This document shows, in pieces, positions 1-18,115 of a DNA stretch of 64,000 nt. Source of the stretch: Candidatus Nanoarchaeia archaeon (lineage in GTDB: Archaea > Nanobdellota > Nanobdellia > SCGC-AAA011-G17 > JAFCDX01); NCBI GenBank assembly GCA_028716945.1, contig JAQUOT010000001.1:187927-251926 (forward strand), read 5' to 3'. The notes beneath the pieces were generated by a model that made no database searches, had not been told where the DNA came from, and saw only the letters and a program-made list of their open reading frames with translations. Position numbers and translations under genes: made by a program. The stretch's first letter is position 1; each line of letters starts with the position of its first letter.

Positions 1-1146
1 GTGCACAAAAATTCCACTATACGGATTAAAATTTATAATTTGACTATAATAATAATTTCCAGAATTATCACCTGCCTCATCAACCCAAGTTTCTTTTTTT
101 AATAATCTTTTTAATTCTAAAGAAGTAATTGTAGGTTTGATATTAAATAATGATTTTCCAAGAGTTAATTTATTTTGAGGAGTTTCAATTAAATAAGAAT
201 CATCACAAATTTTGTTTCCTGTTTGAACATTATCAAGAGTAGAAATACATTCTACTTTTTTAGTTAAGGTTATACTATTTGTTCCTATATTTAATACTAA
301 TTTTGAATCTATATCTTGTATTGTTGTGGGTACATTTGGTGTAAAAGCTATATTTGAATATTCATCTCCAACACTTAAAATTTTAATATTTATTTTTTTA
401 GTATTCCAATTTACTTTTGTTATCATAAATTTATCCATTTTATTTTCATGACAAGATTCGAAACAAACTCCTACAGGTGTTGAAATAGCTACTCCTTTAC
501 CAGAAGATTCTAATAATGCAGTACAAGAAGTTAGACTTGAAATTTTACAAGCACCATTTTCACAACCATTTGGACAAGTATAATAATCCCAAGCAACATT
601 TCCTCCAGAACAATAAGCTTCTGCTAAACGATTTGGATATAAAATTTGATCAGAACAACCATCATAATAAACTGCTCCCAAAGTATCTTTAACATTTCCA
701 GCAGTAAAATAATCTTTTTCATTATCAGAATCTACACAAGTATTAGCTGCAGATGTTGATAATGTAACACATTTTCCTCCAACACATTTTTTATTATATT
801 GAGAACAATCTACTTCAGCAAAATTAGAATTAATACTTTTACAATACCCTTCTATTAAAATATTGGTGTTATCTCCATATTTACAATAATCCCATCCAGT
901 AGTAGACGTAAATAAATTAGTTCCCAAACCATTTTTTGCATCGATTTTACCTTGAACATCTAAATTCCAATAACTAGAACTAGAACCATCTGATTTTATA
1001 CATGAATAAGTAGAAGCTTCTAAAGTTCTTGTATTATCTGAATTTGTTCCAAATAAATTAGTTAAAAAATTATTTATTGAAAAAGCAAATACAATTGGAG
1101 TTACTAAGATTAATAATAAAGAAAGTACAATCAAGCTCTTTTTCAT
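1..1146 (-). CDS. Giant Cys-rich secreted surface protein, N-terminal part (gene continues past window start); paralogue of 1187..3832
   Basis: Minus-strand ATG at 1144-1146. First about 61 codons and upstream 36 bp are identical to the 1187..3832 gene. Translation MKKSLIVLSLLLILVTPIVFAFS... is a signal peptide, followed by a 6-Cys domain (...CVDSDNEKDY...YYDGC...LAEAYCSGG...YTCPNGCENGAC) at about 558-760. Confidence 0.5.
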   Translation of the reverse strand, partial: MKKSLIVLSLLLILVTPIVFAFSINNFLTNLFGTNSDNTRTLEASTYSCIKSDGSSSSYWNLDVQGKIDAKNGLGTNLFTSTTGWDYCKYGDNTNILIEGYCKSINSNFAEVDCSQYNKKCVGGKCVTLSTSAANTCVDSDNEKDYFTAGNVKDTLGAVYYDGCSDQILYPNRLAEAYCSGGNVAWDYYTCPNGCENGACKISSLTSCTALLESSGKGVAISTPVGVCFESCHENKMDKFMITKVNWNTKKINIKILSVGDEYSNIAFTPNVPTTIQDIDSKLVLNIGTNSITLTKKVECISTLDNVQTGNKICDDSYLIETPQNKLTLGKSLFNIKPTITSLELKRLLKKETWVDEAGDNSGNYYYSQIINFNPYSGIFVH

Positions 1147-1182
1147 ATAAATAATATTAAAATTTATATATTTAAATCTTTT
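963..1182 (-). repeat. About 220-bp direct repeat, copy A (100% identical to 3647..3868): promoter plus signal peptide plus first about 60 codons
   Basis: Base-by-base comparison of 963-1182 with 3647-3868 shows identity, with sharp divergence on both sides. Confidence 0.85.
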
Positions 1183-1186
1183 GTTT

Positions 1187-3832
1187 TTATTTTTTAGAAG
1201 AAAGTTCAAGTCTAGCTTTTTGTTGGTTTCTTATTTTTTTGAAAATATAATCTAATTGGTTTTTCTTCCAACCTTTTTTAACCAAAGCATCTTTAATATC
1301 AATTTCAGATTTTTTATCTGCCAATTGTTTTTTAACATATGCTTCTAATTTTATTTCTTGTTCTTTATTTGAAATTGGAGATCCTCTTTTTATTATATAA
1401 TATTGCCAATATATGAAAACTCCAACAATTACAACTACTACAAATAATATTATTAAAATATACCATGGGAAACTTGATCCACAATCGGCCTTACACCATC
1501 CCTCTTCTAATGGATGACATACTCCATCTCCACATTGATATTCTGGTTCTTCAGTTATTTCTGTTTTAGTTGTAATAGAACATTGTTCTGAAGTAGAACT
1601 TAACTGATTTCCTGTGGTTGTATCATAAGTATAAACTGTTCTTGTTCCTATTCCATCTCCTTCGGGATCTATACAATCTCCTAATCTCTGTTCGTAAGAA
1701 CTTTGACTAGCCATAACAGAAGTTATTATACTACAAATTCCACCAATACAACATTTAACTGAATCTGATGAAGCTACAGAAATAAATTGTCCGGTTGTTC
1801 CAGTACATTGTTGATTTTCTAAACATATTTGTCCATCTAAATTATTACAAGTATAATCAGAATAATCTATTGTAAGTTCTTTACATTGCCCAGTACTAAG
1901 ATCTCTTGATTGACAAGACACACATTCTTCATCTTCTAAAGTACAAGTAGTAGTACAACTTGGATCACATGCATCTCCTTTCCCATCATTATCACAATCT
2001 GCTTGATCCTCATTATAAATGTATATGCAATTATCTTCATCATCACAAATTCCATCTTCATCATAATCATCTTCACATTCTAAGCAAGCAGCATTAGATA
2101 CACAAGCACTATCTGCACAATCTGTTAATCCATTACAATTATTATCAATATTATCAGTACAACTAGTTTCTGATTGAGCACAAGAAGAAGGGGTACATCC
2201 TCCATTATTACATCCATACCCATATGTTTGACAATCAACAACTAAAGTCCATACATTATTTTTACATTCTTGTACATTAGTTCCTAAACATCTTAACTGA
2301 TTTTCTTGACAAACAGCAGCTATACAACTTGTAGCAGATGTACAACAATTTAAACAATCACTTACTCCAGTTATAAGACTAGAACATGTTTGTCCAGATG
2401 TACAACAAACACCATTTTTTTGAGCACAAGTTTGTGAATTAGAAGAAGTAGTACCACATTGATTAGCAGTGCCTGCACCACCACAAGTTTCAGCAGCACT
2501 AACATTACAAGTTAATGTCCCTGTTTTAGATAGATTAGTTCCACAATTTGTTGAAACAATTTTATTTCCACAAAACGAACTTAGGTCTGGAGTAAATATA
2601 ATGGGAGTACATCCACTTCCTCCTACGCCTGCAGCACCACTAACAGTACAACTTTTAATTAATGAAAATTGATTAGTACATGCAGCATCTGTACAATATT
2701 GTTGCCCACCTATACCGGGATTAAAAACTTGACAAATAGACCAAGTTGAACAAGTTGATGTTGTACAAACTCCTTTAGATCCACTTCCTCCTGAAGAAGA
2801 AATATTTGAACTATTAATTTTTTTACAAAGGGTACCAATATCTCCTATATCTCCAACATTACATTTTGAATTTGGTACATATGTTGTACAATTATAAGTA
2901 GTATTTACCCACCTTGTTCCTCCACAATAATAAAAATTTCCAGAGGTACATAAATATTTTCCCCTCATACCAGCAGTACAATTTATTCCATTAAAGTTAA
3001 TTTGAGAAGTATCTCCACAAGTTTTAGCAGTAAATACTACTTTATTTGACAAAGCTCCATTCCATACCCAAACAACATATTTTTGTCCAGGTTCTAAAAC
3101 ATAACTTGGAGATAAGGGTTGTACATTTCCAGCTACATCTCCAGAACCGGTTAATTTTATATTAAACTCATTAAGTGTAAAGGTTTCGGTTGCTTTTGAT
3201 GTATCTTTTACTTCTATAGCATAATAGGTTGATGTAGAAGGATCTGCATTACTTATTTCTCCTTTAAAAACATCAATACTATAAGTTCCACTACTAGGAA
3301 CACTTCCACCACTAAAAGTTATATTTACTTTTGATTTAGTTCCTTCACAAGAAGTTGTAATAGTTGAAGATAAAGTTACGGGGGTTATTATACTTCCTGC
3401 TCCACCCGAAGTTGTGGGTGTAACACATTTTCCACTGCTACATATTTTACCATAATCAGAACAATCTATTTTTCCAATATAAAATGAATTTACAGTATTT
3501 CCACAATACCATTCTCCTAAAAGAGTACCTGTAGTATCTTGTCCAATATCTTTAAGACAATAATCAGAACCTACTACTTGGGTTGTAGAGCTAGAACCAA
3601 TCGCAGAAGTAGTTAATGTAATTTTACTAATTTTACCTTGGATATTATAATTCCAATAACTAGAACTAGAACCATCTGATTTTATACATGAATAAGTAGA
3701 AGCTTCTAAAGTTCTTGTATTATCTGAATTTGTTCCAAATAAATTAGTTAAAAAATTATTTATTGAAAAAGCAAATACAATTGGAGTTACTAAGATTAAT
3801 AATAAAGAAAGTACAATCAAGCTCTTTTTCAT
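1187..3832 (-). CDS. Giant Cys-rich surface protein (signal peptide, many Cys-rich and beta-rich repeats, C-terminal TM helix, short basic cytoplasmic tail)
   Basis: ORF track 1187..3877. I moved the start to Met-16 (ATG 3830-3832) because everything upstream is the conserved promoter shared with the copy at 1146. C-terminus has the TM helix FPWYILIILFVVVVIVGVFIYW plus a lysine-rich tail. Confidence 0.6.
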   Translation of the reverse strand: MKKSLIVLSLLLILVTPIVFAFSINNFLTNLFGTNSDNTRTLEASTYSCIKSDGSSSSYWNYNIQGKISKITLTTSAIGSSSTTQVVGSDYCLKDIGQDTTGTLLGEWYCGNTVNSFYIGKIDCSDYGKICSSGKCVTPTTSGGAGSIITPVTLSSTITTSCEGTKSKVNITFSGGSVPSSGTYSIDVFKGEISNADPSTSTYYAIEVKDTSKATETFTLNEFNIKLTGSGDVAGNVQPLSPSYVLEPGQKYVVWVWNGALSNKVVFTAKTCGDTSQINFNGINCTAGMRGKYLCTSGNFYYCGGTRWVNTTYNCTTYVPNSKCNVGDIGDIGTLCKKINSSNISSSGGSGSKGVCTTSTCSTWSICQVFNPGIGGQQYCTDAACTNQFSLIKSCTVSGAAGVGGSGCTPIIFTPDLSSFCGNKIVSTNCGTNLSKTGTLTCNVSAAETCGGAGTANQCGTTSSNSQTCAQKNGVCCTSGQTCSSLITGVSDCLNCCTSATSCIAAVCQENQLRCLGTNVQECKNNVWTLVVDCQTYGYGCNNGGCTPSSCAQSETSCTDNIDNNCNGLTDCADSACVSNAACLECEDDYDEDGICDDEDNCIYIYNEDQADCDNDGKGDACDPSCTTTCTLEDEECVSCQSRDLSTGQCKELTIDYSDYTCNNLDGQICLENQQCTGTTGQFISVASSDSVKCCIGGICSIITSVMASQSSYEQRLGDCIDPEGDGIGTRTVYTYDTTTGNQLSSTSEQCSITTKTEITEEPEYQCGDGVCHPLEEGWCKADCGSSFPWYILIILFVVVVIVGVFIYWQYYIIKRGSPISNKEQEIKLEAYVKKQLADKKSEIDIKDALVKKGWKKNQLDYIFKKIRNQQKARLELSSKK

Positions 3833-3868
3833 ATAAATAATATTAAAATTTATATATTTAAATCTTTT
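3647..3868 (-). repeat. About 220-bp direct repeat, copy B (promoter and signal-peptide cassette)
   Basis: Identical to 963..1182. Confidence 0.85.
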
Positions 3869-3873
3869 TATTT

Positions 3874-5895
3874 TCAAAATAAAGGTTTTATTCTGGTTTC
3901 TTTCAAAGCTTCCTTAATTTGTTCCTCTTTCCACCCTTTTATTCTTAAAGAACTTATAATTTGTTCTTTTGGAATACCTTGATTTATTTTAACTTGAATA
4001 TAATTTGATAATCTTGCTAAACTTAATTCTTTTTCAATATCGGATTGTGGCCAACCTGCTCTTTCTAATTCCTCTTTTATATTCTTCAAAGGAACTTTTG
4101 CATTTAAAGATTTTTGAATATATTCTTTCATTTTTTCAACATTAACAGGTCTTACTTTTATTGTAGGTTCTTGTTTTATTTCTTTTACAAAAGTTTGAGG
4201 AGCAACTTCTTTTGGTTGAACTATCGGACTTGATTCTTCAACAACTGCTCTTTTTCTTTGTACATAAGTATAAATTATAATTACTAAAATCATAATGAAA
4301 ACTATTCCAGAAATTAAACTTACTCCAATAAGCACCTTATTTGATTTATTTTCAAGATTAGTGTTAGTACCTAAATTAACATTTGTAGTTGTTCCTGCTA
4401 AAACAGTAGAAGTACAAGAAATAGAACAGCAAATTCCTGATCCCGAATGTAATAAAGTAGAACTACTACAAGTTTGATTACTTCCACAAACATAACCATT
4501 TTCTAAAGAGCAAGAACAATCTGAATCTCCTCCAACGCAAGATATAGAACAACCATCATTTATTCCACAAGTAGAACCAGTACAAGATTCATTAATTGCA
4601 GGTCTTCCTGTTAAAGTTCCACAATTATTTTCATCAATACAAGTTCTTGTTCTTACATTATTAACACAAGAAGTCCAATTTGTACAATTCCAAGTTTCAG
4701 AACAGGAAGAAGTAGAATTTGTAATATTAATTAAGAATAAATTACCAACAACATACAATCCTAAACTATCATTAGCACTAAATCTTATTAAATTGGTTCC
4801 AGTCCAGTTTGCTTTTGGAACAAATTCTGCTTCATCATTAGAATTTATAAAAATAGAAATAGAATTATTTCCGGTGAAATTATAAATTAATTTTTGTCCA
4901 TCTGGTTCTGAGAAATAATCCTCTAATTCTAAACTATCATTGGTATTTTTTCTCCAAGACATATTATCAAAATTATCTTTTAATATAGGAGGAGAATTTA
5001 ACATATCAATACTGCTTGAATTTACATAAGTTCCTTTAATCGTATCGTTAGCACTAATAGTACATGTCCATTCATCTATATGACTTTCAGTTATCTGTAC
5101 AGAAATATTACAAGATTTTCCATTTACCCAAGAATCTCCAGAACAAGATACATCTCCAGATTTAAATGGACTAGCAAAATTAGTTTCATTCCACAAAATG
5201 TATTTAACATTAACAGTACTACTATCCGTATCTTTAACAATAGAAGAACAATTTACATAATCTTTTACTCTAAACTTATTTGAACCAGTTAAATTAGTAA
5301 AAGAAACATCTGTTATTGTAGGAGGATTAGTTGTTACAGGAGCAGAAACTGTAAAACTTTTTGTATCTGAAATTAAAACATCTGCACTGTAATTTAAAAT
5401 GAATTCTAAAGTATAAGTTCCAGCACTTAAGGCAGATAATCCAGAAAAAGCAGATATAGGAGTACTTACAGTAACTTCAGAAAGCGTTGAAAATGCTCTT
5501 CCAGGTTGTTCAGGATTTTCCCAAGCCCAATCAGGACTATCATGACTTCCATCTTTAAAAATTTGACCATCAATACAATTTTTTGGATTTGCATTTGAGT
5601 TAGTTAAAAAATTTTCTAAAGTTAGAGTACTACGTTGTATAACTTGGTCTCCAGAATCTTTTATACCTATATAAACATTTGAAGACCCATTACAAGGAAT
5701 AACATCGCCTGCTAAAAATTTTATTGAAATATCTCCAGTTAATGATTGCCCTGCAGTTATAGTATCTAAATCAATATTATCTTTAACAACGTTTCCAGTA
5801 ATAGATGGCTTCATTAACATAAAAACTAAAAATGAGAATACAAATATTGCAAATATAAAAACGCTCAATTCTCTATCTTTTTTAATATGTACCAC
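3874..5895 (-). CDS. Large surface protein: signal anchor, Ig/PKD-like beta domains, Cys-rich stalk, TM helix, cytoplasmic tail with repeated K-G-W-x-x-Q motif
   Basis: 673-aa ORF. N-terminal hydrophobic segment; C-terminal Cys-rich region (CSETWNCTNWTSC...), then TM helix VLIGVSLISGIVFIMILVIIIY and a tail carrying ...RAGWPQSDIEKEL... and ...RIKGWKEEQIKEAL... Confidence 0.55.
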   Translation of the reverse strand: MVHIKKDRELSVFIFAIFVFSFLVFMLMKPSITGNVVKDNIDLDTITAGQSLTGDISIKFLAGDVIPCNGSSNVYIGIKDSGDQVIQRSTLTLENFLTNSNANPKNCIDGQIFKDGSHDSPDWAWENPEQPGRAFSTLSEVTVSTPISAFSGLSALSAGTYTLEFILNYSADVLISDTKSFTVSAPVTTNPPTITDVSFTNLTGSNKFRVKDYVNCSSIVKDTDSSTVNVKYILWNETNFASPFKSGDVSCSGDSWVNGKSCNISVQITESHIDEWTCTISANDTIKGTYVNSSSIDMLNSPPILKDNFDNMSWRKNTNDSLELEDYFSEPDGQKLIYNFTGNNSISIFINSNDEAEFVPKANWTGTNLIRFSANDSLGLYVVGNLFLINITNSTSSCSETWNCTNWTSCVNNVRTRTCIDENNCGTLTGRPAINESCTGSTCGINDGCSISCVGGDSDCSCSLENGYVCGSNQTCSSSTLLHSGSGICCSISCTSTVLAGTTTNVNLGTNTNLENKSNKVLIGVSLISGIVFIMILVIIIYTYVQRKRAVVEESSPIVQPKEVAPQTFVKEIKQEPTIKVRPVNVEKMKEYIQKSLNAKVPLKNIKEELERAGWPQSDIEKELSLARLSNYIQVKINQGIPKEQIISSLRIKGWKEEQIKEALKETRIKPLF

Positions 5896-6805: not shown

Positions 6806-7282
6806 TTAAACCTTTCGTTTCTCTTTTATATTTAACAAATCCCCTATTTTTAAAGTACCATCTTTTAAATTTAAACTAGGTTTATGGGTTTCAGGATTGA
6901 CATAATATGCCTTAAAAGTGTCTATCAATTTTATACTTAATATTTTCTCTATATTTTTAGCCATTCTAAAAGTAGGTACTAATTTATTGGATTCTAAATT
7001 TCTAATAGTAATAATTCTATCATACATTTTATTTGCTAAATCTTCTTCTGTCCAGTTTAATTTTAATCTAGCATTTTTAATTCTTGAAGAGAAATCAGGA
7101 ACAATCATTTCATTTTCTTCTTCTTTTTGTAATTCCAGAATTTTTTCTTCTATTTCTTTTGGTTTTATTTCAACAGCTTTTCCAAGAGCAATACAATTAG
7201 AACAAGCTTTAATTAAAACTCCTTCAAAAATAGCTTCTCTTGTTTCGCATTCCTTTTTATTACAAACTGCACAATTATTCAT
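6806..7282 (-). CDS. mbf1: Archaeal multiprotein bridging factor 1 (Zn-ribbon plus XRE-type HTH)
   Basis: N-terminal C-x2-C...C-x2-C (CAVCNKKEC...CSNC), then an HTH segment IKNARLKLNWTEEDLANKM. Confidence 0.5.
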   Translation of the reverse strand: MNNCAVCNKKECETREAIFEGVLIKACSNCIALGKAVEIKPKEIEEKILELQKEEENEMIVPDFSSRIKNARLKLNWTEEDLANKMYDRIITIRNLESNKLVPTFRMAKNIEKILSIKLIDTFKAYYVNPETHKPSLNLKDGTLKIGDLLNIKEKRKV

Positions 7283-7949
7283 TTTTTACAAGAGCAAATA
7301 CTTCTCCAACGCTTGTAAAACCTTCTTTTTTATCTTTATTATTTACTATTATTGTTGGTGCTTTTGTAATATTATAATAATTCTTTACTAAATTCAAAGT
7401 TGGCTCATCAAATTGTCTATCTATAGAAAATATCTTAATATTAATATCTTGTCTATTTGCTAAATTATCTAAAACATAACCCTGCTTTATTGAATTATCC
7501 TCTTCCAAATCATAAAAATATAAAATAATATTTTGTTTATTATCACATTTTTTATTATAATCTATGAAAAGAGAATAAGCCCTTATTTCAAGTAAAAAAT
7601 ATTGTTCTCTTAATGAATCATATTCTTTTTCTTTTAATATATTTTTATCATCATATTCCATTAACCTCTGTCCTAAATCATATAAATTTCCAGAACTTGA
7701 AGAAAGTCTTTCTTTTATTAAATTACAATTTCCTATATCTAAGGATTCTAAGAATTGTTGCTCAACAAAAATGCTGATTATATCTAAATTATTTTGGTTT
7801 AAATTATAAGCAACATCACTTGTTCTTAAATCATCCCAAATTTTTGCAGTATAAAATCCTAATAGAAATATAGCTACAGTAATTACTAGCGCTGTTATGA
7901 AAATATCTTTTCTTATCTTTGGCATTTTACCATTTCCTCTTAGCCCCAA
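7275..7949 (-). CDS. Membrane-anchored hypothetical protein (N-terminal TM), last gene of the glycosyltransferase cluster
   Basis: 224 aa with a single N-terminal hydrophobic helix. Overlaps both neighbouring genes. Confidence 0.3.
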   Translation of the reverse strand: MGLRGNGKMPKIRKDIFITALVITVAIFLLGFYTAKIWDDLRTSDVAYNLNQNNLDIISIFVEQQFLESLDIGNCNLIKERLSSSSGNLYDLGQRLMEYDDKNILKEKEYDSLREQYFLLEIRAYSLFIDYNKKCDNKQNIILYFYDLEEDNSIKQGYVLDNLANRQDINIKIFSIDRQFDEPTLNLVKNYYNITKAPTIIVNNKDKKEGFTSVGEVFALVKNE

Positions 7950-9162
7950 AAGCCTCTAAAACAAAGGCATTCATCCATTGCAGACTCCTTAACATAGGAT
8001 ATAACAATAAATATATAAGGGTAATGAAATGGAATTTCCACCTCTGATTAAAGTATTTATGGGCATAGATATAGATATAAAAACCAAATATAAAACTAGC
8101 AATTACAGGAAACCATATTCTTATATCTAAGCTTAAAATAAAATCTTTTACAGATGGCCATTCTATTATAAAATCAAATATTCCAAATCCCAACGTAATT
8201 ATCTTTGTTAAGGTTGTATAAACATATCTTAAAAATTGATAAGCAAATAATAAAAATGAAAATAAAACCATTAACATTGTTGTAACATTCAAAGGTAATT
8301 GGAACAACCCAATTAAACCATAATTTTTGTTAAAGAACATTTTTTTATATTTCCAGTTGTTTGTGATAAAACCTCTGAACCATCTTACTCTTTGTTTCCA
8401 GAAAGCCCTTATATTCAAAGGTCCATTTGTATAATTAATACTCCTTGGTTCTATAATTACATTATATTTATTATACCTCAATTTTAATGCAACTTCTAAG
8501 TCTTCTGTTAGATTGTTTTTGTCAAAACCCCCTAATTTTTTAATTAAATCTGTTCTGTAAACCGTCATAACTCCATGAGTCATGTGTAATGCTCCGATTC
8601 TAGATATTAATTTTCTAACAAAACTAGATAGAATATATTCTAATCTTTGTATTCTACCTAAATAGTTTATATCATTATTTATTAAAACAGAACTAATTAC
8701 CGCACCAATCTCCGGATCTGAGAAATGATTTACAATTAATTTCAAAGAATTTTTATCTACAAAAGAATCTGAATCAACTCTTGCAAAAAATTCAGTATCA
8801 ATTTGTTGCAAGGCAGCATTCAATGTTCCTGCTGCATTTCCACTATTGATTTTGTTTTGAATTAATTTAATATTTTTATGTTTTTTACAATATTCTTTAA
8901 TAATTAAAGGAGTATTATCTGTAGAAGCATCATCTGCTACAATTATTTTTAATTTATCTTTCGGATAATCCAGATTAAGTATAGAATCTAAGGTTTTTGC
9001 TATATTTTTTTCTTCATTATATGCAGGAACGACTACAGTAACTTTTGGAATTTCTTTTAATGGCTGCGGTTCTTTTGGTTCTCCTAAACCAACTATAATT
9101 AACCAAAAGATAGATACATATAGTGAAATGAAACACAATATCCATATATATATTTCAAACAT
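7927..9162 (-). CDS. Family-2 glycosyltransferase, processive type (QxxRW motif) with C-terminal TM helices
   Basis: VVVPAYNEE...DDASTDNT (GT-A fold, DxD), RVDSDS, and QRVRWFRG (Q-x-x-R-W, hallmark of processive beta-glycan synthases), followed by multiple TM helices. Confidence 0.65.
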   Translation of the reverse strand: MFEIYIWILCFISLYVSIFWLIIVGLGEPKEPQPLKEIPKVTVVVPAYNEEKNIAKTLDSILNLDYPKDKLKIIVADDASTDNTPLIIKEYCKKHKNIKLIQNKINSGNAAGTLNAALQQIDTEFFARVDSDSFVDKNSLKLIVNHFSDPEIGAVISSVLINNDINYLGRIQRLEYILSSFVRKLISRIGALHMTHGVMTVYRTDLIKKLGGFDKNNLTEDLEVALKLRYNKYNVIIEPRSINYTNGPLNIRAFWKQRVRWFRGFITNNWKYKKMFFNKNYGLIGLFQLPLNVTTMLMVLFSFLLFAYQFLRYVYTTLTKIITLGFGIFDFIIEWPSVKDFILSLDIRIWFPVIASFIFGFYIYIYAHKYFNQRWKFHFITLIYLLLYPMLRSLQWMNAFVLEAFGAKRKW

Positions 9163-9178
9163 TTTAACCCCCTGAATA

Positions 9179-10642
9179 TTAACAAACTAATTTGTAAACC
9201 TGTAAATTTTTTTCAAAGCAATCTGTATCAAACTTCTTACTATCTATATTGTATAATTTTTTAACCTTTTCTGATAAAAAGATATATTTTATGTTATTTT
9301 CTTTCATTTTTGAAATGGTTCTCTCTCCTGAATTTGAACTAAATAAAATTCCTGCGTCTAACATCCTCTTCTCCGGATTTGGTGCTAATAAGAAATTTGT
9401 ATCAAAAAAGTTTTTCTTGCCTGAAAAATAATTAATCAAATTTCCTTCATAAATAGTACCAATGACTATATCATTTTTATCCTGAGAATCTTGTTTTATC
9501 CATTGCAAAGATTCAATTTCTATATTACTAGGAACCTGGCTTGCAGTGTTTTTTGCCATGGTAAATGAAGGGTAAACTGAAAATAATACTAATAAAATTA
9601 CAAATATACTTAAAAGTAATTTATTCCAATGTGCTACTTTTGTTAATTTTAGATATTTAAAAAAATTATAGATGGTTAATGCAGACAAAATTGAAGCAGA
9701 TAATCCTATAAAAACTAAAGCTGTATAAAAATTAATCATTTTCAACGAGAGCAAAATTAGATTGGTTATTAATAATGAAGATATTAAAAATATTGCTTTC
9801 TTTTTGTATTTTGTAATTCCTTTATAAATAGTTATAAATCCAAATATTAAAGGAATGTAACCTAAATGATACATTATAGAAAGGATATTTATTTGTTTAA
9901 AAGAAGCCACAGATAATGAGCTAGGCAAATTGTTCCATAATACACTTATTCCATAACTTAACAAAGAATCTTTATAAATTAATAAATTTGTTAGTAAAGT
10001 AATAATTAAAAAAGATAATATCAAGATTATTTCATTTTTATTTAATTCAGAATCTTCTGCATAAGAAAAAACTAAATAAATTATAAAAAATAAAATTACT
10101 AGAATAGAGATTGGACTTAATAAAGCCAAAATGAGTGAGGATAATAAAAATAGAGAAAAGTATGTTTTTTTATCAAGGTTTAAAATACAATAAATCATAA
10201 AAAATATTAAAGGAAATGCAATGCAATACACAGAAACCTTGTTTAATGTTTCTCTAATTGCTAAAGGGACAAAACCCACCATGAATGCAGAAATTAATGC
10301 AGATCTTTCATCGTTTATTATTTGTTTTGATATTAAATAAGCAAGTATTACTAATAAAGACATAAAAAATTGTAAGATTATTTTATCTGCCCAAGGAATA
10401 AATGAAATCGCAGCTAAAAAATATGAAAATAGGGGTGAATTATTTACAGGCCTTCCTGAATAACTCAGTTCATCATAAATCATGGGTTTTAAATTTTCCT
10501 TGACATAATCTGCTTGTCTTAAATTGGCATAAGAAGTATCATCTGAAAATGAATTTTCTGGGGTGGATAAAGAAAAGTTCAATCTAAATAAAAATACAAC
10601 CAAAAACAAAACCAACAAAATTATTTTATATATTTTATTCAT
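9179..10642 (-). CDS. Multi-TM GT-C-like glycosyltransferase (ArnT/PMT/AglB-like architecture)
   Basis: 487 aa with about 11 predicted TM helices plus a C-terminal soluble domain, adjacent to the GT2. Homology is not verifiable here. Confidence 0.35.
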   Translation of the reverse strand: MNKIYKIILLVLFLVVFLFRLNFSLSTPENSFSDDTSYANLRQADYVKENLKPMIYDELSYSGRPVNNSPLFSYFLAAISFIPWADKIILQFFMSLLVILAYLISKQIINDERSALISAFMVGFVPLAIRETLNKVSVYCIAFPLIFFMIYCILNLDKKTYFSLFLLSSLILALLSPISILVILFFIIYLVFSYAEDSELNKNEIILILSFLIITLLTNLLIYKDSLLSYGISVLWNNLPSSLSVASFKQINILSIMYHLGYIPLIFGFITIYKGITKYKKKAIFLISSLLITNLILLSLKMINFYTALVFIGLSASILSALTIYNFFKYLKLTKVAHWNKLLLSIFVILLVLFSVYPSFTMAKNTASQVPSNIEIESLQWIKQDSQDKNDIVIGTIYEGNLINYFSGKKNFFDTNFLLAPNPEKRMLDAGILFSSNSGERTISKMKENNIKYIFLSEKVKKLYNIDSKKFDTDCFEKNLQVYKLVC

Positions 10643-11216: not shown

Positions 11217-11570
11217 TTAATTCAAATATATTGGTTTCTTATCTTTGTCTGGTGTACCTCTAGGATTTTTTGGAGGTTCTTGAGAATGACCAACATAAAA
11301 TCTTAATAGAACAGTTAATGCCAACAGTTCTTCCTGTTGTACATTCATATAATCACGAGGTTTATCTTTCACAGCCTCGAATAGATCATAAAAACAATAC
11401 CACATCTCATCCCATAAAACTCTTCCTCGTTCAACTGCTTCTTTCCAAGTTTGAGGATGTTCATTATACAACAATTCTCCTTTATGTCTAAGGTGGTTAT
11501 TCCAATCAAGTTCATAAACCTTTTTACTTAATGCTTCAATTCTACGTTCTAATTCAATTACTTGATTCAT
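11217..11570 (-). CDS. Hypothetical Trp-rich protein (orphan)
   Basis: 117-aa ORF flanked by two about 150-bp intergenic regions. Codon usage is noticeably less AT-biased than neighbours. Confidence 0.3.
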   Translation of the reverse strand: MNQVIELERRIEALSKKVYELDWNNHLRHKGELLYNEHPQTWKEAVERGRVLWDEMWYCFYDLFEAVKDKPRDYMNVQQEELLALTVLLRFYVGHSQEPPKNPRGTPDKDKKPIYLN

Positions 11571-11721: not shown

Positions 11722-12090
11722 TTACTCTAACCCTTGGTATTCTAAAGATTGTTTTTCGCTTAAACAAGCACCATCAAAACATCCTTCTTCACAATAAACT
11801 ATCATTGTTTGGAAATTAAAAGAATTTGTCGAATCACAATTATACTCTTTTAATCTATTTGCATCTACGCAATAATCTGTTCTTTCACGCAGATTACAAT
11901 CGTCTCCTCTTACTGAAACAGTTCCTTTTAGATTAATACTTCCTTGGTCTGTATCTTTACAAGATTTATCACAACCAACAAGAACATTACTAGTTGTTGT
12001 AAATTGAGTTACTCCCAAAGTTAATAAAAGAATTACTGCTATAAGTAATAAAGCAGATAATAAAACTTCTTTATTAAATTTCTTTGCCAT
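11722..12090 (-). CDS. Small membrane-anchored 6-Cys protein, paralogue 1 of 5 (CxDTDxG ... TDYC ... EYxC ... CxxGCxDGAC)
   Basis: N-terminal hydrophobic anchor, then CKDTDQG...TDYC...KEYNC...CEEGCFDGAC. Confidence 0.55.
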   Translation of the reverse strand: MAKKFNKEVLLSALLLIAVILLLTLGVTQFTTTSNVLVGCDKSCKDTDQGSINLKGTVSVRGDDCNLRERTDYCVDANRLKEYNCDSTNSFNFQTMIVYCEEGCFDGACLSEKQSLEYQGLE

Positions 12091-12091
12091 T

Positions 12092-12487
12092 TTATTTTAT
12101 GCAAGCTCCATCTTTACAACCTTTTTCACAAATAACCAATTTATCATTATATTCACTATAAGTAAAATCTTGAGAGTTAGAACTTTCTGGATCTGATCCA
12201 CAGAAATATTCTTTTACGGCAGAATATTTATTTTCTTCATTTGGTCCAACCTGTACATAAGCACAATAATCGGTTTTTGCTTCAAAAGCATAGCGTCCTT
12301 TGCTTACCGCAGTTACTGTACCTTTAACAAATTGATTATATCCTCCATCTGTATCATTACAACTTCTTTTTAGAAGAACGTTTCCAGTTGTAAAATTTAT
12401 AAAGCTTAATATAAAAAATGCGCAAACAGATACTATTAAAATTAGAATAATATAATCCCTAACATCCACTTCTTTTTTCTTTTTCAT
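12092..12487 (-). CDS. Small membrane-anchored 6-Cys protein, paralogue 2
   Basis: CNDTDGG...KTDYC...KEYFC...CEKGCKDGAC. Starts 1 nt after paralogue 1 ends. Confidence 0.55.
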   Translation of the reverse strand: MKKKKEVDVRDYIILILIVSVCAFFILSFINFTTGNVLLKRSCNDTDGGYNQFVKGTVTAVSKGRYAFEAKTDYCAYVQVGPNEENKYSAVKEYFCGSDPESSNSQDFTYSEYNDKLVICEKGCKDGACIK

Positions 12488-12561
12488 ATCTTATTTATAC
12501 ATTTAATTATTTATAAAGATTTCTATATAAATTAAAAAAATAAAAAATAAAAAATTTTAAT

Positions 12562-12891
12562 TTATTGTAAGCATGCTCCGTTTTGACAGCCATTTGCACA
12601 ATAAACTGAAGGATCTCTGTTATATCCGCTTGCATCTGCCACATTACAATTAAATTCTACTAATGTCTTTCCTGTTGAATCATCCATAGAACAATAATCT
12701 GTTTGTGGGTCAAAAGCAGTTCCTCCAGAATCAGTACCTGTTACAGTACCTTGCATGTAAATACTTCCACCATCAGTATCTTGACAAGAAACTTTTATAA
12801 CTTTTCCTGTTGTTAAAATACCTGATGCTAAAAGCACTGCTAAAACGAGCAAAACTACTAATCCGATTATAGTTTTGTCTTTTGTATCCAT
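12562..12891 (-). CDS. Small membrane-anchored 6-Cys protein, paralogue 3
   Basis: CQDTDGG...QTDYC...VEFNC...CANGCQNGAC. Confidence 0.55.
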   Translation of the reverse strand: MDTKDKTIIGLVVLLVLAVLLASGILTTGKVIKVSCQDTDGGSIYMQGTVTGTDSGGTAFDPQTDYCSMDDSTGKTLVEFNCNVADASGYNRDPSVYCANGCQNGACLQ

Positions 12892-12931
12892 AATTTAATT
12901 AAGAACAATCTATATTTAAATGTTTCTAAAC

Positions 12932-13267
12932 TTATTCTATGCAAGCGCCGTCTTTACAACCCTTTTCACAAACAACTAATTCAGATTCCCAATTATTTGG
13001 AGTAAGCAAATTACAGTTATATTCTTTTAATTCCTTTGTATTTTCTAAAGAACAATAGTCTGTTTCTTCAAATTGGGCATTGTAATCAGTATATCCTGTT
13101 ACTATTCCTTTTACATAAATACTTCCACTATCTGTATCTTCACAATGTGCTTTAAAACTAAATCCAGTAACTTTCTCAAAAAATCCTGTTGCAAAAAATA
13201 ATAAATATAAAGACAGTATTACAAAAATTACCAATAATTTTCTTGAAAAACCTTCAAATAATTTCAT
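12932..13267 (-). CDS. Small membrane-anchored 6-Cys protein, paralogue 4
   Basis: ORF track 12932..13309. Start moved to MKLFEGF (ATG 13265-13267) to remove the overlap with paralogue 5. CEDTDSG...ETDYC...KEYNC...CEKGCKDGAC. Confidence 0.5.
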   Translation of the reverse strand: MKLFEGFSRKLLVIFVILSLYLLFFATGFFEKVTGFSFKAHCEDTDSGSIYVKGIVTGYTDYNAQFEETDYCSLENTKELKEYNCNLLTPNNWESELVVCEKGCKDGACIE

Positions 13268-13281
13268 TTTGAAATAAAAAA

Positions 13282-13650
13282 TTATCTCTCGCAAGCCCCG
13301 TTCTTGCAACCATATTCACAAACAATAAATTTATAGGAATATGCGTTTTTGTCTGTTTCTTCTGGGTCAATATCATGCAAACAATAATATTCTTTTAAAA
13401 CATCGGTTTTTTCAGGATTATCTTCATAATATACACAATAGTCTACTTCATTAATCTGTATTTGAGAAGGATATTGGTGTCCTGAAAGCTTTCCTCTAGC
13501 AAATTCATTATCTCCACTATCAGTATCATAACAATAGCCTGCACGCATACTTTGCCCAGTAGTATAATTTATAGTATTATTTAGCACAATTAAAACTGCT
13601 AAAACAACTAAGATTGCAGAACCTATCACCACTTTATCTCTATTATCCAT
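13282..13650 (-). CDS. Small membrane-anchored 6-Cys protein, paralogue 5
   Basis: CYDTDSG...VDYC...KEYYC...CEYGCKNGAC. Confidence 0.55.
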   Translation of the reverse strand: MDNRDKVVIGSAILVVLAVLIVLNNTINYTTGQSMRAGYCYDTDSGDNEFARGKLSGHQYPSQIQINEVDYCVYYEDNPEKTDVLKEYYCLHDIDPEETDKNAYSYKFIVCEYGCKNGACER

Positions 13651-14783: not shown

Positions 14784-17144
14784 TTAAAATTCTATTTTTA
14801 AGTTATCTCCAAATTTAATCTCTTTTGCATTTGTAACAGCTTTCAAATCATCAAAAAATTCTTTTATAATCTTTTCATTCTTTTTTTCTATAGTAATAAT
14901 AACAGGTTCTTTCATTGATTTGTTATTTTTAGTTTTGAATTGTCTTACTTCATTAATTATATCTAAAACTAAATCTCCATCTTTTTCTAAATCTGTGTCT
15001 TTTAACTTTTTATCATACTCTGGCCAAGAAGTTAAATGTATGCTTTCTTTTTTCTTTAAAGTTTCTTGATAAATTTCTTCTGTTATAAAAGGAGTAATTG
15101 GGCCTAACATTTTTAATAAACAGATTAAAGTCTTATGTAAAGTATATTGTGCAGACATTCTAGAATCTTTTCCTCTTTTATCTGGATTATATAATCTATC
15201 TTTAACAATTTCTAAATAATTATCACAAAATATATGCCAAAAGAAATTTTCTATTTTTTGTTTTGGTTTTGAATAAGAATAATTTTCAAAATCTTCTGTG
15301 CATTCTTTTACTAAATTATTTAGTTTTATCAATAACCATTCATCAAATTTCTCTAGTTTTTTATTTTCTTTTTCTTTGTAATCTTGTAAGTGCATTGCAA
15401 CGAATTTGGAAGCATTCCATAATTTTGTTATTAATTTTTGTCCTGTAACTAAATCTTTTTCCTGATAATCTAAATCCTCTCCCAATTTTGAACCTGCTGC
15501 CCAAAACCTCATAGCATCTGTACCAAATTTATCTAAAACTTGTTTAGGATCAATAACATTTCCTAAAGATTTAGACATTTTTTCTCCACCAATTGTAACA
15601 TAACCAGAAATTGTAATATCTTTCCAAGGAATCTCTTTTTCGTGTAAATAAGATTTAGTTATGGTATAAAATGCCCAAGTTCTTATAATATCATGTGCTT
15701 GTGGTCTAAGAGAAAATGGAATTTTTATTTTTCCATTTACTAGAGAAGAAGCAATTTGTGGTGTTAAAGAAGAAGTTGCCCAAGTATCCAAAACTTTTTC
15801 TTCTCCGTTTGCATCTTGTTTACATTTAGGACATTTCTTTTTTGTTTGTAAAGGATCTATAGGTAATTCTTTTTCTTCAGGCAAGATTATTTCTCCACAT
15901 TTTTTACATTCCCAAACCGGAATAGGAATACCAAAGTGCCTGTCTCTTGAAATAGACCAATCCCATTCTAACCCATTTACCCAATTTTCATATCTTTTAA
16001 ACATGAATTCAGGATACCATCTAACTTTCTTCCCTTGTTCAATTAATTTTTTCTTTTTATCTAATATTTTAATAAACCATTGTTTTGTTGGAAGAAGTTC
16101 TATTTCAGTTCCACATCTGTCGTGTACGTTAACTATATGACTTATTGGTTTTTGTTCAGTAATTAAATCTACATTTTTTAAATCTTCAAGAATTTGCTTT
16201 CTTGCTTCTTTTATTTTAAGCCCTTTATATTTTCCAAAGTTTAAAGTTCCATCTTGATTAAAAACTATTTTTGGAGTAAGTTTATGTTTTGTTATTGCTT
16301 GTGCATCATATTTATCTCCATAAGAACATATCATTAATACTCCTGTTCCTTTTCCTATATCTGCAGATTCGTCAGCAATTATAGGAACTTCGAAATTAAA
16401 TAAAGGAACTTTTGCTTTTTTACCAACTAAATTTTTATAACGTTCATCAGAAGGATTTACAAATACAGCAACACATGCGGGCAATAATTCTGGCCTTGTT
16501 GTTGCTATTAACAAATCTTTTCCATTTGCTTTAAATTTCAAAGTAGAAAATAAACTTTCTAAATTTTTGTCTTCTAATTCTGCTTGTGCAACAGTAGTTC
16601 TACAATCTGTACACCATAAAGTTGGAAAGTCTTTAACATAAATATCTCCTTGTTTAAACAAATCAATAAAAGATTTTTGAGAAACTTTTTGAGTTGGTTT
16701 ATCTATAGTAGAATAATATATATTAAAATCTGCACTCATTGCTATATCTTTCCAATCTTGTATAAACCCAGGAGTTTGTTCTTTTAAAGTTTTTAAACAT
16801 AATTCAATAAATGCTGCCCTAGATATAGATTTACTTTTAATATTATTTGTTTTTTCTACAAATCTTTCTGTAGGTAACCCATTATCATCTGTTCCGAAAG
16901 GATAAAATACATTTTTTCCAGACATTCTTTGGTATCTTGCTATAAAATCTTGTTGTGAATATGAAAAAGCATGACCAATGTGCATTTTACCAGAAATATA
17001 AGGAGGAGGCGTATCTATAGAATAAACTGGTTTCTTTGAATTTATATCAAACTTGTAAATCTTATTCTTTTCCCAGTATTCCTTCCACTTCTTCTCTGAT
17101 GCTTTAAAATCATAATTCTGACTTGTCATATTAATTATCTCCAA
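14784..17144 (-). CDS. valS: Valyl-tRNA synthetase (archaeal type)
   Basis: PPPYISGKMHIGHAFSYSQQDFIARYQRMSGKNVFYPFGTDDNGLPTE (HIGH region as in archaeal ValRS) and KMSKSLGNVIDP. Confidence 0.75.
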   Translation of the reverse strand: MEIINMTSQNYDFKASEKKWKEYWEKNKIYKFDINSKKPVYSIDTPPPYISGKMHIGHAFSYSQQDFIARYQRMSGKNVFYPFGTDDNGLPTERFVEKTNNIKSKSISRAAFIELCLKTLKEQTPGFIQDWKDIAMSADFNIYYSTIDKPTQKVSQKSFIDLFKQGDIYVKDFPTLWCTDCRTTVAQAELEDKNLESLFSTLKFKANGKDLLIATTRPELLPACVAVFVNPSDERYKNLVGKKAKVPLFNFEVPIIADESADIGKGTGVLMICSYGDKYDAQAITKHKLTPKIVFNQDGTLNFGKYKGLKIKEARKQILEDLKNVDLITEQKPISHIVNVHDRCGTEIELLPTKQWFIKILDKKKKLIEQGKKVRWYPEFMFKRYENWVNGLEWDWSISRDRHFGIPIPVWECKKCGEIILPEEKELPIDPLQTKKKCPKCKQDANGEEKVLDTWATSSLTPQIASSLVNGKIKIPFSLRPQAHDIIRTWAFYTITKSYLHEKEIPWKDITISGYVTIGGEKMSKSLGNVIDPKQVLDKFGTDAMRFWAAGSKLGEDLDYQEKDLVTGQKLITKLWNASKFVAMHLQDYKEKENKKLEKFDEWLLIKLNNLVKECTEDFENYSYSKPKQKIENFFWHIFCDNYLEIVKDRLYNPDKRGKDSRMSAQYTLHKTLICLLKMLGPITPFITEEIYQETLKKKESIHLTSWPEYDKKLKDTDLEKDGDLVLDIINEVRQFKTKNNKSMKEPVIITIEKKNEKIIKEFFDDLKAVTNAKEIKFGDNLKIEF

Positions 17145-17188: not shown

Positions 17189-17338
17189 GGAGCGGTAGCT
17201 CAGAAAGGTTTTGAAGTTTAAGACCTTGAGCAACCTGGGAGAGCATAGAAATATCTCAAACCACGCTGAAGCCGTGGATGAAAGGTTATACGTCTAGTAT
17301 ACCTTGCCAAATCGGGGGTTCAAATCCCCCTCGCTCCA
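17189..17338 (+). tRNA. tRNA-Phe (anticodon GAA) with three insertions: D-loop about 27 nt, 16 nt at position 26/27, about 31 nt in the variable region
   Basis: Manual fold: acceptor GGAGCGG/TCGCTCC (G-U at pair 7), D-stem GCTC/GAGC, anticodon arm CCACG-CTGAAGC-CGTGG, T-arm GGGGG-TTCAAAT-CCCCC, discriminator A. The variable-region insert forms a hairpin TATAC-gtcta-GTATA. Confidence 0.5.
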
Positions 17339-18026
17339 TTTTCTTTATATTTTTAATATTAGAACTTCTTATTAATTTAATAAAAGAGGAGGCATTATTA
17401 TAACCGCTTATTTGTATTTTATATTTTTCATACCTTTTATTAGTTCTTTTATCTATATAATTTTCATGTCCTACATAATGATCTATCTTTTGAATTTTAA
17501 TCCAATCAGATATTTTGTATATTAAATTTTTATCTTTTAGACCAAGATTAATAACTGGATAAAATTTATATTTTCCGTGATTCTTTTTTAAACACAAAGA
17601 ACCATCTGTATCAAAAATTCCTTTAATGAATGCTTTAGCATAAATTTTATTATCCCATATCCATCGAGGAACCTTATTTCTATAATTTATTTTTTTATAA
17701 CCTATAATATTAAGAAAAGATAATATCCCTTTAGATCTCTTTGTTAAGATTAAAGTATTAATCTTTTTCTTTTGATATAAATTCATCTTTACATTGAATA
17801 AAAACAAAACTTTATCTTTAATATAGTTTGAATAATTCCTCTCATCTTTGAGATTACTAAAAATAGAAAAAATATAATCATTGCTTCCTAAATTATAATA
17901 AACATGGCCATCTCCAGACAAAATACCTAAAAATTCTGACAAGTCTCTAGAAGAGGATTTAGGAAAAATAATTTTATTCTTAATATCTTGGTGACTTAGT
18001 TGAATATCTGATAAATCAAATTTCAT
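17286..18026 (-). CDS. LAGLIDADG-family homing-endonuclease-like protein, copy 1
   Basis: Motifs LGILSGDGHV and KGIFDTDGSL (two LAGLIDADG-type helices, so a single-chain enzyme). Start set at MKFDLSDI (ATG 18024-18026) because upstream sequence is conserved non-coding in copy 2. The last about 17 codons are antisense to the tRNA-Phe 3' half. Confidence 0.55.
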   Translation of the reverse strand: MKFDLSDIQLSHQDIKNKIIFPKSSSRDLSEFLGILSGDGHVYYNLGSNDYIFSIFSNLKDERNYSNYIKDKVLFLFNVKMNLYQKKKINTLILTKRSKGILSFLNIIGYKKINYRNKVPRWIWDNKIYAKAFIKGIFDTDGSLCLKKNHGKYKFYPVINLGLKDKNLIYKISDWIKIQKIDHYVGHENYIDKRTNKRYEKYKIQISGYNNASSFIKLIRSSNIKNIKKMERGGFEPPIWQGILDV

Positions 18027-18048
18027 GATTAATAAAAAGCGAATTTGA

Positions 18049-18115
18049 TTTATAAATCTGGCGCGCACCCATCTGCAAGTTGCAATTTGTTAGAATATAT
18101 ATTTTGTGGAATATA
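18049..18115 (-). promoter_or_regulatory. Conserved about 65-bp upstream element of the LAGLIDADG paralogues (TATA box TTTATAAA about 23 nt before the ATG, plus GC-rich palindromic block)
   Basis: tttataaatctggcgcgcacccatctgcaagttgcaatttgttagaatatatatttt is nearly identical at 63404..63460. Contains palindromes GCGCGC and TTGCAA-C-TTGCAA. Confidence 0.4.

Follow-up and report, generated by a model that had tools for sequence, protein, structure and literature searches.

The analysed window is a 64,000-nt stretch (64 kb) of DNA from a Candidatus Nanoarchaeia archaeon, a tiny organism of the DPANN group. Every gene concerned lies on its minus strand: two genes, here called A and B, and five small genes, here called S1 to S5. 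Their products all start with a hydrophobic segment and contain one or two copies of a domain with six cysteines (the 6-Cys domain). The features are as follows.

1..1146, minus strand: 5' part of gene A, from its translation (codons 1-382 of 751; the remainder lies past the window edge)
1078..1146, minus strand: N-terminal hydrophobic signal or anchor segment of A (aa 1-23), from sequence; same residues as in B
766..1005, minus strand: 6-Cys domain, A copy 1 (aa 48-127); 24.1 bits and E 2e-6 over the full model
547..741, minus strand: 6-Cys domain, A copy 2 (aa 136-200); 57.5 bits, E 8e-17
1187..3832, minus strand: gene B, an ORF of 881 aa; the 881-aa product is also present in a public assembly
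3422..3691, minus strand: 6-Cys domain, B copy (aa 48-137); 17.3 bits, E 2.8e-4
1391..1471, minus strand: putative C-terminal transmembrane helix of B (aa 788-814), from hydrophobicity; basic cytoplasmic tail after it
944..1188, no strand: 245-nt direct repeat, copy 1 (upstream region and first ~200 nt of A)
3630..3874, no strand: 245-nt direct repeat, copy 2 (5' end of B)
11722..12090, minus strand: S1, 122 aa, N-terminal hydrophobic anchor and one domain (11764..11964; 58.6 bits)
12092..12487, minus strand: S2, 131 aa (domain 12101..12364; 54.1 bits)
12562..12891, minus strand: S3, 109 aa (domain 12571..12789; 58.2 bits; modelled with AlphaFold2, pLDDT 94.3)
12932..13267, minus strand: S4 (domain 12941..13147; 63.4 bits)
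13282..13650, minus strand: S5, 122 aa (domain 13291..13536; 49.6 bits)

Full-length A, recovered from locus L001 (6530..8785), has 751 aa and, judging from hydrophobicity, is probably a secreted Cys-rich protein. The architecture of B comprises a signal peptide, one 6-Cys domain, more Cys-rich regions, a C-terminal transmembrane helix and a cytoplasmic tail, with TSP3-like acidic repeats at 1955..2161 and TSP_3 and NF033662 matches at aa 553-625. At 751 and 881 aa, neither protein is the giant that a preliminary description of this DNA had taken it for. The two copies of the 245-nt repeat are 97% identical, the first 184 coding nucleotides of A and B are 100% identical, and copy 1 of the repeat spans the first Cys of the 6-Cys domain in A. 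In each of S1-S5, the domain makes up the entire ectodomain (~70 aa; aa 35-109 in S3). Translation of S4 likely starts at the ATG at 13267 rather than at the TTG at 13309; its orthologue P0008 begins with MKLFEGF. Pfam searches with the neighbouring genes at 7275..7949, 9179..10642 and 11217..11570 gave sub-threshold matches only.

Homology of the domain copies in large and small proteins

We built a family profile from 1,051 domain copies found in 150 unrelated proteins, leaving A and B out of the input. When run on the window, this profile identified eight copies: one each in S1-S5 (50-63 bits), two in A and one in B. The next-best match among 820 six-frame segments had an E-value of 0.08. 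A profile of the C-terminal half of the domain revealed no further half-domains in B (e.g. VVDCQTYGYGCNNGGC) beyond the eight known copies, and B thus has a single copy. The preliminary description had located the copies approximately, at ~558-760 in A and ~3380-3650 in B; their exact boundaries are 547..741 (A copy 2) and 3422..3691, and A copy 1 had been overlooked.

The likeness might be a by-product of Cys-rich, low-complexity composition, the A and B segments and the small-protein domain having no common ancestry. This possibility is favored by a search with a profile built from S1-S5 alone, which barely detected A (E 0.003) and did not see B, and by the N-terminal copy of B being Ser/Thr-rich with long insertions. 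However, the highest score among 2,000 composition-matched shuffles was 13 bits, against 62, 30 and 23 bits for the three A/B copies, none of which was equalled by a shuffle. A regular expression for Cys and acidic residues had seven matches in the window and none in 300 shuffles, and a 14-sequence profile detected A at E 2.6e-8. Profile-to-profile alignment against a 55-sequence profile with hhalign, proposed at the outset as a check, gave probabilities of 98.1% for A copy 2 (E 7.9e-14) and 93.9% for B (E 1.6e-7, 67 of 68 columns), with full-length coverage. The Cys align throughout, as do the D/E/G signature positions, and in an alignment with 37 two-domain segments the 12 Cys of the A tandem are without exception invariant. 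Other Cys-rich regions of the window, the rest of B included, had no profile score. The shuffles, the hhalign results and the aligned Cys and signature positions essentially refute the compositional explanation, to which we assign a negligible chance.

Loss of Cys spacing under gap scoring had been named as the observation that would overturn the proposed relationship; with gaps scored, the spacing lies within the family range in all A/B copies. In the family, C1-C2 is 24-34 (maximum 49), C2-C3 is 9-17, C3-C4 is 11-16, C4-C5 is 3, 5 or 6 and C5-C6 is 4; the corresponding values are 26/14/11/3/4 in A copy 2, 38/13/11/6/4 in A copy 1 and 42/17/13/6/4 in the B copy. The C1-C2 values of A copy 1 and the B copy lie above the 95th percentile and below the family maximum. 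Five acidic or glycine positions are also conserved in the family: D at C1+2 (85%), D at C1+4 (94%), D at C2-2 (96%), E at C3-3 (95%) and G at C6-2 (93%). All five are present in S1-S5 and A copy 2. Both A copy 1 and the B copy have Lys in place of the first Asp of CxDxD and keep the other four positions, so any acidic site would be incomplete there.

A copy 2 (TCVDSDNEKDY...CPNGCENGAC) belongs to the canonical subtype and is the only one of the three copies that follows the strict scaffold CxD[ST]D ... CxxGCxxGAC, which had been ascribed to both large proteins. A copy 1 is of a divergent subtype with a long C4-C5 loop, and the B copy (SCIKSDGSS...DCSDYGKICSSGKC) is divergent as well, with a long C1-C2 insertion. 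These two carry CIKSD and the longer C4-C5 loop (CSDYGKIC / CSQYNKKC), itself a common variant inside the family (CPSGYxCxxGxC). They share 46% identity and are clearly paralogues. Taken alone, the B copy would be moderately significant (17 bits), additional weight coming mainly from its paralogy with A copy 1.

Profile searches, hhalign and shuffles agree that the same 6-Cys module is present in A, B and S1-S5, in line with the AlphaFold2 models of A and S3 described below, and at the level of sequence comparison the A/B copies are demonstrably homologous to the domain of S1-S5. Free-standing (S1-S5) and embedded (A and B) versions of the module coexist in one genome, as originally proposed.

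Size, distribution and predicted fold of the family

An exhaustive search of cluster representatives (50% identity) with E-values of 1e-3 or lower yielded a family of 7,373 representatives. We rely on this count because word-indexed searching is too coarse for the family; with the 55-sequence profile, it returned only six small proteins, and with the N-terminal region of A it gave no match at all, A itself included. Domain length is ~65-90 residues, with six Cys, and the family consensus reads TCTDSDGGKNYYVKGTVTG...TDYC...LKEYYC...CPNGCSDGACI. Proteins giving the top family matches are 330-3,760 aa long and contain 3-24 matched stretches (copies) each. Using the consensus sequence as a query, we gathered 78 GTDB loci, 63 of which are archaeal (mostly Woesearchaeota, Aenigmatarchaeota and Nanoarchaeota) and 15 bacterial, including seven from CPR; contigs that bear the labels Methanosarcinales, Cloacimonadota or Phycisphaerae may be mis-binned. 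The 48 complete ORFs in these loci comprise 29 multi-copy proteins, 17 single-copy proteins of at least 200 aa and two small single-copy proteins. Hydrophobic N-termini were found in 127 of the 142 top family matches vs 15 of 51 ORFs in the window, which, as far as hydrophobicity can tell, suggests that the domain is extracytoplasmic. Domains co-occurring with it include Peptidase_C25 together with Dockerin, CBM96 with S-layer, CARDB, and Kre9/KNH Ig-like domains. These searches establish a very large, uncurated family whose domain usually occurs as 2-24 tandem copies in N-terminally hydrophobic, presumably secreted proteins, mainly in DPANN archaea and also in some CPR bacteria.

No Pfam profile matched the consensus, A copy 2, S3 or an eight-repeat protein at E-values up to 10, and neither NCBIfam nor PDB has an entry for the family. 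We found no named homologue of the domain, nor any mention of it in the literature on cysteine-rich, disulfide or surface proteins of DPANN, Nanoarchaeia or Woesearchaeota. The family is large and widespread in ultra-small archaea and bacteria, yet none of the domain and structure libraries that we searched contains it.

Structure prediction of the repeated unit, also proposed at the outset, was carried out for S3 and the A tandem. The AlphaFold2 model of S3 (pLDDT 94.3) is a small all-beta fold. In the model of the A tandem (pLDDT 86.6; 71-92 for copy 1 and 91-97 for copy 2) both copies are beta, and the order of strands relative to the Cys is the same in the two models. In Foldseek comparisons with PDB and BFVD, no solved or viral structure was significantly similar to the domain model, and an HMM search of PDB sequences with the domain returned nothing meaningful. 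The best structural matches, all weak, were of the CBM14/peritrophin-A type (Avr4, 6bn0; Der p 23, 4zce). An analysis of correlated Cys loss among the 1,051 copies found no informative paired losses, the Cys being nearly invariant.

Origin of the small-gene array and possible function of the domain

The account that we favor, with a probability of about 0.8, is that A and B are mid-sized secreted or anchored proteins carrying a 6-Cys domain of the S1-S5 type, that this domain serves as a scaffold or binding module, and that the S1-S5 array is independent of A and B. The N-terminal regions of A and B would display two copies and one copy, respectively, of the all-beta domain. On the outside of the cell, its six invariant Cys would pair into three disulfides and so stiffen a small beta scaffold; a putative cation- or ligand-binding site would be made up of four acidic residues that are nearly invariant (two in CxDxD, the D at C2-2 and the E at C3-3); and the C1-C2 and C3-C4 loops, which vary in length, may confer specificity. 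Given these features, the module could act as a bead-like spacer or a binding unit, held membrane-distal at the N-terminus in A and B, whereas in S1-S5 one N-terminal anchor would keep it close to the membrane. The domain, with its conserved cluster of acidic residues, is best read as an extracytoplasmic module that would serve as a scaffold or in binding and is probably stabilized by disulfides.

The array had also been thought to be tied to the large proteins, which holds at the family level only. A closer link, in which the small genes were carved from A/B-like genes or their products pair with A and B at the surface, would fit the distance of ~8 kb between the array and A/B in one genome and on one strand, as well as a relative in which a 643-aa four-copy protein adjoins the small-gene array. 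However, S1-S5 are mutual best matches, each other's nearest relatives; when ~1,000 family copies are ranked by closeness to them, the A/B copies come at ~650-950. A copy 2 is nearer to copies from other organisms and phyla (60 bits) than to S1-S5 (at most 27 bits). Related genomes contain syntenic arrays of six and three small genes between aRF1 and scpB. Together with the mutual best matches, these arrays indicate that the S1-S5 array was likely born by local tandem duplication, independently of the A/B copies. Moreover, the domain is so common in DPANN (7,373 representatives) that its co-occurrence in one genome is expected, and its presence in both the array and A/B does not imply that the two are specifically linked in function or evolution. 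Such a link is very improbable; the sharing of the domain by small and large proteins is ordinary domain modularity.

Other alternatives concern the chemistry and function of the domain. Instead of forming disulfides, the six Cys could ligate Zn or Fe-S, making a metal-stabilized or redox-active extracellular module for anoxic habitats. The organisms are largely anaerobic, and the closely spaced C-terminal Cys (CxxGCxxGxC) look like metal-binding knuckles. The extracytoplasmic location, the lack of His or other typical co-ligands at conserved positions, the confident AlphaFold2 model obtained without metal, and a thioredoxin gene nearby in L001 with a weak Thioredoxin_3 match on a syntenic gene in locus L004 argue against metal ligation, none of them decisively, and we consider it improbable. 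A CBM14/peritrophin-A-like carbohydrate-binding module, through which cells or their enzymes would attach to glycans of the host or to chitin-like polymers, would resemble the 6-Cys domain in several respects: CBM14/peritrophin-A modules (Cladosporium fulvum Avr4, Der p 23) are likewise small (~50-80 aa), extracellular, beta-rich and six-Cys, and are also used singly or in tandem. However, the CBM_14 Pfam profile matched none of the four queries listed above at E-values up to 10, and solved CBM14/peritrophin-A structures have no significant structural similarity to the 6-Cys domain; we regard this assignment as unlikely.

Known extracellular beads offer further comparisons for the favored scaffold or binding module. 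LDL-A and thrombospondin type-3 ("acidic double-disulfide") repeats are likewise Cys-rich beads with an Asp/Glu cluster in large surface proteins, and in these families the cluster binds Ca2+. By analogy, binding of Ca2+ by the 6-Cys domain can be put forward only as a hypothesis. LDL-A and TSP3-type modules have roughly half the length and consist mainly of loops, whereas the 6-Cys domain is ~70 aa and all-beta, and TSP_3/NF033662, LDL-A and EGF-like profiles have no match over it, the TSP_3 and NF033662 matches in B lying at aa 553-625. CARDB, PKD and Big/Ig-like beads have the same architectural role, being strung in tandem in proteins that are secreted or anchored and that also contain enzymes and adhesion domains; however, they are 90-100-aa sandwiches without conserved Cys, whereas the 6-Cys domain is smaller with six invariant Cys, and no fold match to them was found.

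Attachment to other cells is the way of life of DPANN archaea and CPR bacteria, whose surface proteome is mostly unannotated. The 6-Cys domain appears to be a recurrent building block of this proteome, and a formal family definition would provide annotation for thousands of "hypothetical" proteins. A more speculative and rather doubtful proposal is that the domain has a novel structure and mediates cation-dependent binding or adhesion in ultra-small DPANN/CPR episymbionts alone, as their equivalent of LDL-A or cadherin-type beads, with the arrays of three to six genes between aRF1 and scpB in this Nanoarchaeia lineage encoding diversified, minimal host-contact receptors. The S1-S5 ectodomains (~70 aa) are small, confidently modelled and easily expressed targets for tests of host contact.

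The six-Cys domain in A, B and the small proteins

The domain, a module of about 70 residues whose six Cys we number C1 to C6, occurs in two surface proteins, A (two copies) and B (one), and once in each of five small membrane-anchored proteins, S1-S5. All of these genes lie on the minus strand:

1..1146 (-): A, partial gene
766..1005 (-): A copy 1, aa 48-127, absent from the preliminary description
547..741 (-): A copy 2, aa 136-200, TCVDSDNEKDY...YYDGC...AEAYC...YYTCPNGCENGAC
1187..3832 (-): B
3422..3691 (-): B copy, aa 48-137, SCIKSDGSS...SDYC...GEWYC...DCSDYGKICSSGKC
11722..13650 (-): S1-S5

Protein A begins with MKKSLIV..., and in each small protein a hydrophobic segment at the N-terminus precedes a single six-Cys region of ~70-90 residues with the signature CxDTDxG...G...DYC...lkEYxC...vxCexGCkdGAC. 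A copy 1 is a paralogue of the B copy (46% identity), and both have an unusual C-terminal end, CxxYxxxCxxGxC. This is a common family variant: C4-C5 comprises 5 or 6 residues in ~33% of family copies, for example CPSGYxCxxGxC or, in the S4 orthologue P0008, CTNYGMRCVDGAC.

A profile built from S1-S5 only matched A weakly (E 0.003) and did not match B; adding nine homologues (14 sequences) improved the match to A to E 2.6e-8. The 14-sequence profile was run against 1.84 billion cluster representatives, and a new profile was made from 1,051 copies taken from the 150 best matches, with A and B not used as input. Searched against the complete set of 820 six-frame segments from the window, it recovered the eight expected copies and nothing else: A copy 2 (57.5 bits, E 8e-17), A copy 1 (24.1 bits, E 2e-6), the B copy (17.3 bits, E 2.8e-4) and S1-S5 (50-63 bits). 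For each of the three copies in A and B, none of 2,000 composition-matched shuffles equalled the real score. Against a 55-sequence alignment, hhalign gave the B copy a probability of 93.9% (E 1.6e-7, 67/68 columns) and A copy 2 one of 98.1% (E 7.9e-14). When the A tandem was aligned with 37 two-domain segments of other proteins, 12/12 Cys fell in invariant columns. Since Cys spacings in A and B are also within the family range, the preliminary observation that the domain of the small proteins is embedded in A and B is confirmed. The same description called these proteins giant; at full lengths of 751 aa (A) and 881 aa (B), neither is.

The small-gene array and its genomic setting

The proposed tie between the small-protein array and the large surface proteins is partly supported: it holds as family membership and does not extend to a specific link. 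The closest relatives of S1-S5 are one another (S1-S4 65 bits, S3-S4 66, S2-S5 61), whereas A copy 2 scores at most 27 bits against them and 60 bits against copies of other organisms; relative to the small proteins, the A and B copies rank ~650-950 of ~1,000. In related Nanoarchaeia genomes, the interval between aRF1 and scpB contains syntenic arrays of small genes, one with six and one with three. Judged from these comparisons, the array is a common module that has expanded in tandem within this lineage, and the sharing with A and B is ordinary modularity. In one related genome (Ga0265297_10000017, locus L002, 4413..6344), a gene for a 643-aa protein with four copies sits between valS and aRF1, directly beside the six-gene array; in the window, no gene lies there.

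A 535,886-bp contig of a metagenome-assembled Candidatus Nanoarchaeia (DPANN) genome encodes the hypothetical proteins that S1-S5 match, PHD81_01060-01080. The window is AT-rich (G+C ~27%) and contains archaeal ribosomal-protein, aRF1 and aminoacyl-tRNA-synthetase genes. Synthetase genes at 14784..17144 and 57845..59371 are adjoined by free-standing LAGLIDADG-like ORFs, of which there are three, at 17286..18068 (-), 56862..57827 (+) and 62684..63382 (-) (Pfam LAGLIDADG_3, E 7e-4, 5e-5 and 3e-9, respectively); two of the three start with MKFDLSDI.

The six-Cys family and its predicted structure

The family itself, rather than the sharing between A/B and S1-S5, is what makes the domain of interest. 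It comprises 7,373 cluster representatives at E<=1e-3; tightening the cut-off to E<=1e-10 leaves 2,412, and to E<=1e-30, 247. The top-scoring 150 of the 7,373 are 330-3,760 aa long with 3-24 matched stretches. The domain is missing from the libraries searched: sampled members had no Pfam or NCBIfam match over it up to E 10. Named members are labelled "hypothetical protein [Candidatus Nanoarchaeia archaeon]", and we found no mention of the family in the literature. A scan of GTDB species representatives, with the family consensus as query, confirmed 232 sites and yielded 78 loci. By the submitters' own taxon labels, some of which may reflect binning errors, 63/78 loci are archaeal (Woesearchaeota 19, Aenigmatarchaeota 8, Nanoarchaeota/-ia 7, Micrarchaeota 3, Pacearchaeota 2, and others) and 15/78 bacterial, including 7 from CPR/Patescibacteria. 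The family is abundant and largely confined to ultra-small symbionts.

The copies are homologous, occur in an extracytoplasmic context and are used like beads on a string. Among complete domain-bearing ORFs of the GTDB loci, 29/48 are multi-copy, 17/48 have a single copy in a protein of at least 200 aa and 2/48 are small single-domain proteins. All partner domains are extracellular (Peptidase_C25 with Dockerin_1, CBM96 with S-layer, CARDB, Kre9/KNH Ig-like), and a hydrophobic N-terminus is present in 127/142 top family matches versus 15/51 window ORFs.

AlphaFold2 predicts an all-beta domain for S3 (55-row alignment, pLDDT 94.3). The A tandem (aa 47-202) reached pLDDT 86.6 (copy 2 91-97, copy 1 71-92), with the same strand succession relative to the Cys. 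Structural relatives were undetectable, with no significant Foldseek match in PDB or BFVD and no HMM match among PDB sequences. We envisage a small beta scaffold stabilised by disulfides, with variable C1-C2 and C3-C4 loops. Near-invariant positions are acidic (D at C1+2, 85%; D at C1+4, 94%; D at C2-2, 96%; E at C3-3, 95%) or Gly (one at 92%; C6-2, 93%), and the acidic cluster may bind a cation or ligand. A carbohydrate-binding, CBM14-like domain is a weaker alternative, and it is conceivable that the Cys ligate metal. In the most likely arrangement, the copies in A and B, right behind the signal peptide, occupy the distal end of the protein, and the lone domain of S1-S5 is held by the N-terminal anchor. 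B ends in a TM helix and cytoplasmic tail, and A in an EF-hand/dockerin-like module.

Other features of the surface genes

The A module (DSGDNGILEIPDYDTAQNLF...CNDVDKNKNGYV; C-terminus of A, locus L001 6530..8785, beyond the window) occurs twice in a 244-aa secreted ORF, 35161..35895 (-), where Pfam reports EF-hand_7/EF-hand_1 (E 2e-7 / 9e-8). It is a dockerin/EF-hand-like surface module common to otherwise unrelated proteins and probably binds Ca2+. A second Cys module, CTPxxFTPxLxxxCGxKIVxTNCGxxLSKxGTLTC, with no relation to the six-Cys domain, is common to B (aa ~405-450, ~2480..2620 -) and A (C-terminal part, in L001).

The neighbours A and B share a 245-nt direct repeat (97% identity) at their 5' ends (944..1188 and 3630..3874, respectively). 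It spans ~42 nt upstream and the first 184 coding nt (100% identical), which encode the first 61 aa, signal peptide included; protein identity is ~45% further on. So abrupt a change points to recent gene conversion or recombination affecting promoter and leader rather than uniform divergence of tandem duplicates.

Acidic Cys repeats in B (1955..2161 -; CTDNIDNNCNGLTDCADSAC...DEDGICDDEDNC...DCDNDGKGDAC) gave sub-threshold matches to TSP_3 (E 0.006) and an NCBIfam acidic double-disulfide repeat (E 2e-6); a similar motif, CNDNIDNDNDTFVDCYDNDCSNDNAC, occurs in a 669-aa membrane protein, 32533..34542 (-). B (1187..1390 -) and its neighbour C, a 673-aa surface protein (3874..5895; end at 3874..4200 -), finish with a TM helix and basic cytoplasmic tail repeating ...L...GW....I...L (KKGWKKNQLDYIF; AGWPQSDIEKEL; IKGWKEEQIKEAL), which may be a shared docking motif (weak Pfam YfjL_N match, E 0.006).

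Between the array and A/B/C lie three genes, 7275..7949, 7927..9162 and 9179..10642, all (-). One of them encodes a GT2 glycosyltransferase homologue (so annotated by Pfam in L002 and L004, where the locus is syntenic), another a polytopic membrane protein of 487 aa, and another a ~220-aa membrane-anchored protein whose L004 orthologue weakly matches Thioredoxin_3. A thioredoxin gene comes after A (L001 9798..10121). Together they may serve surface-protein maturation (glycosylation, thiol-disulfide chemistry). Finally, many secreted window ORFs (11722..13650, 3874..5895, 35161..35895, 53329..53940) carry the short motif TG[KNQE][AVS][VLM] just past their hydrophobic N-terminal stretch, as in ILTTGKVIKV, SITGNVVKD, SYTGKAVAV and TITGEVIG; it is possibly a conserved processing site.
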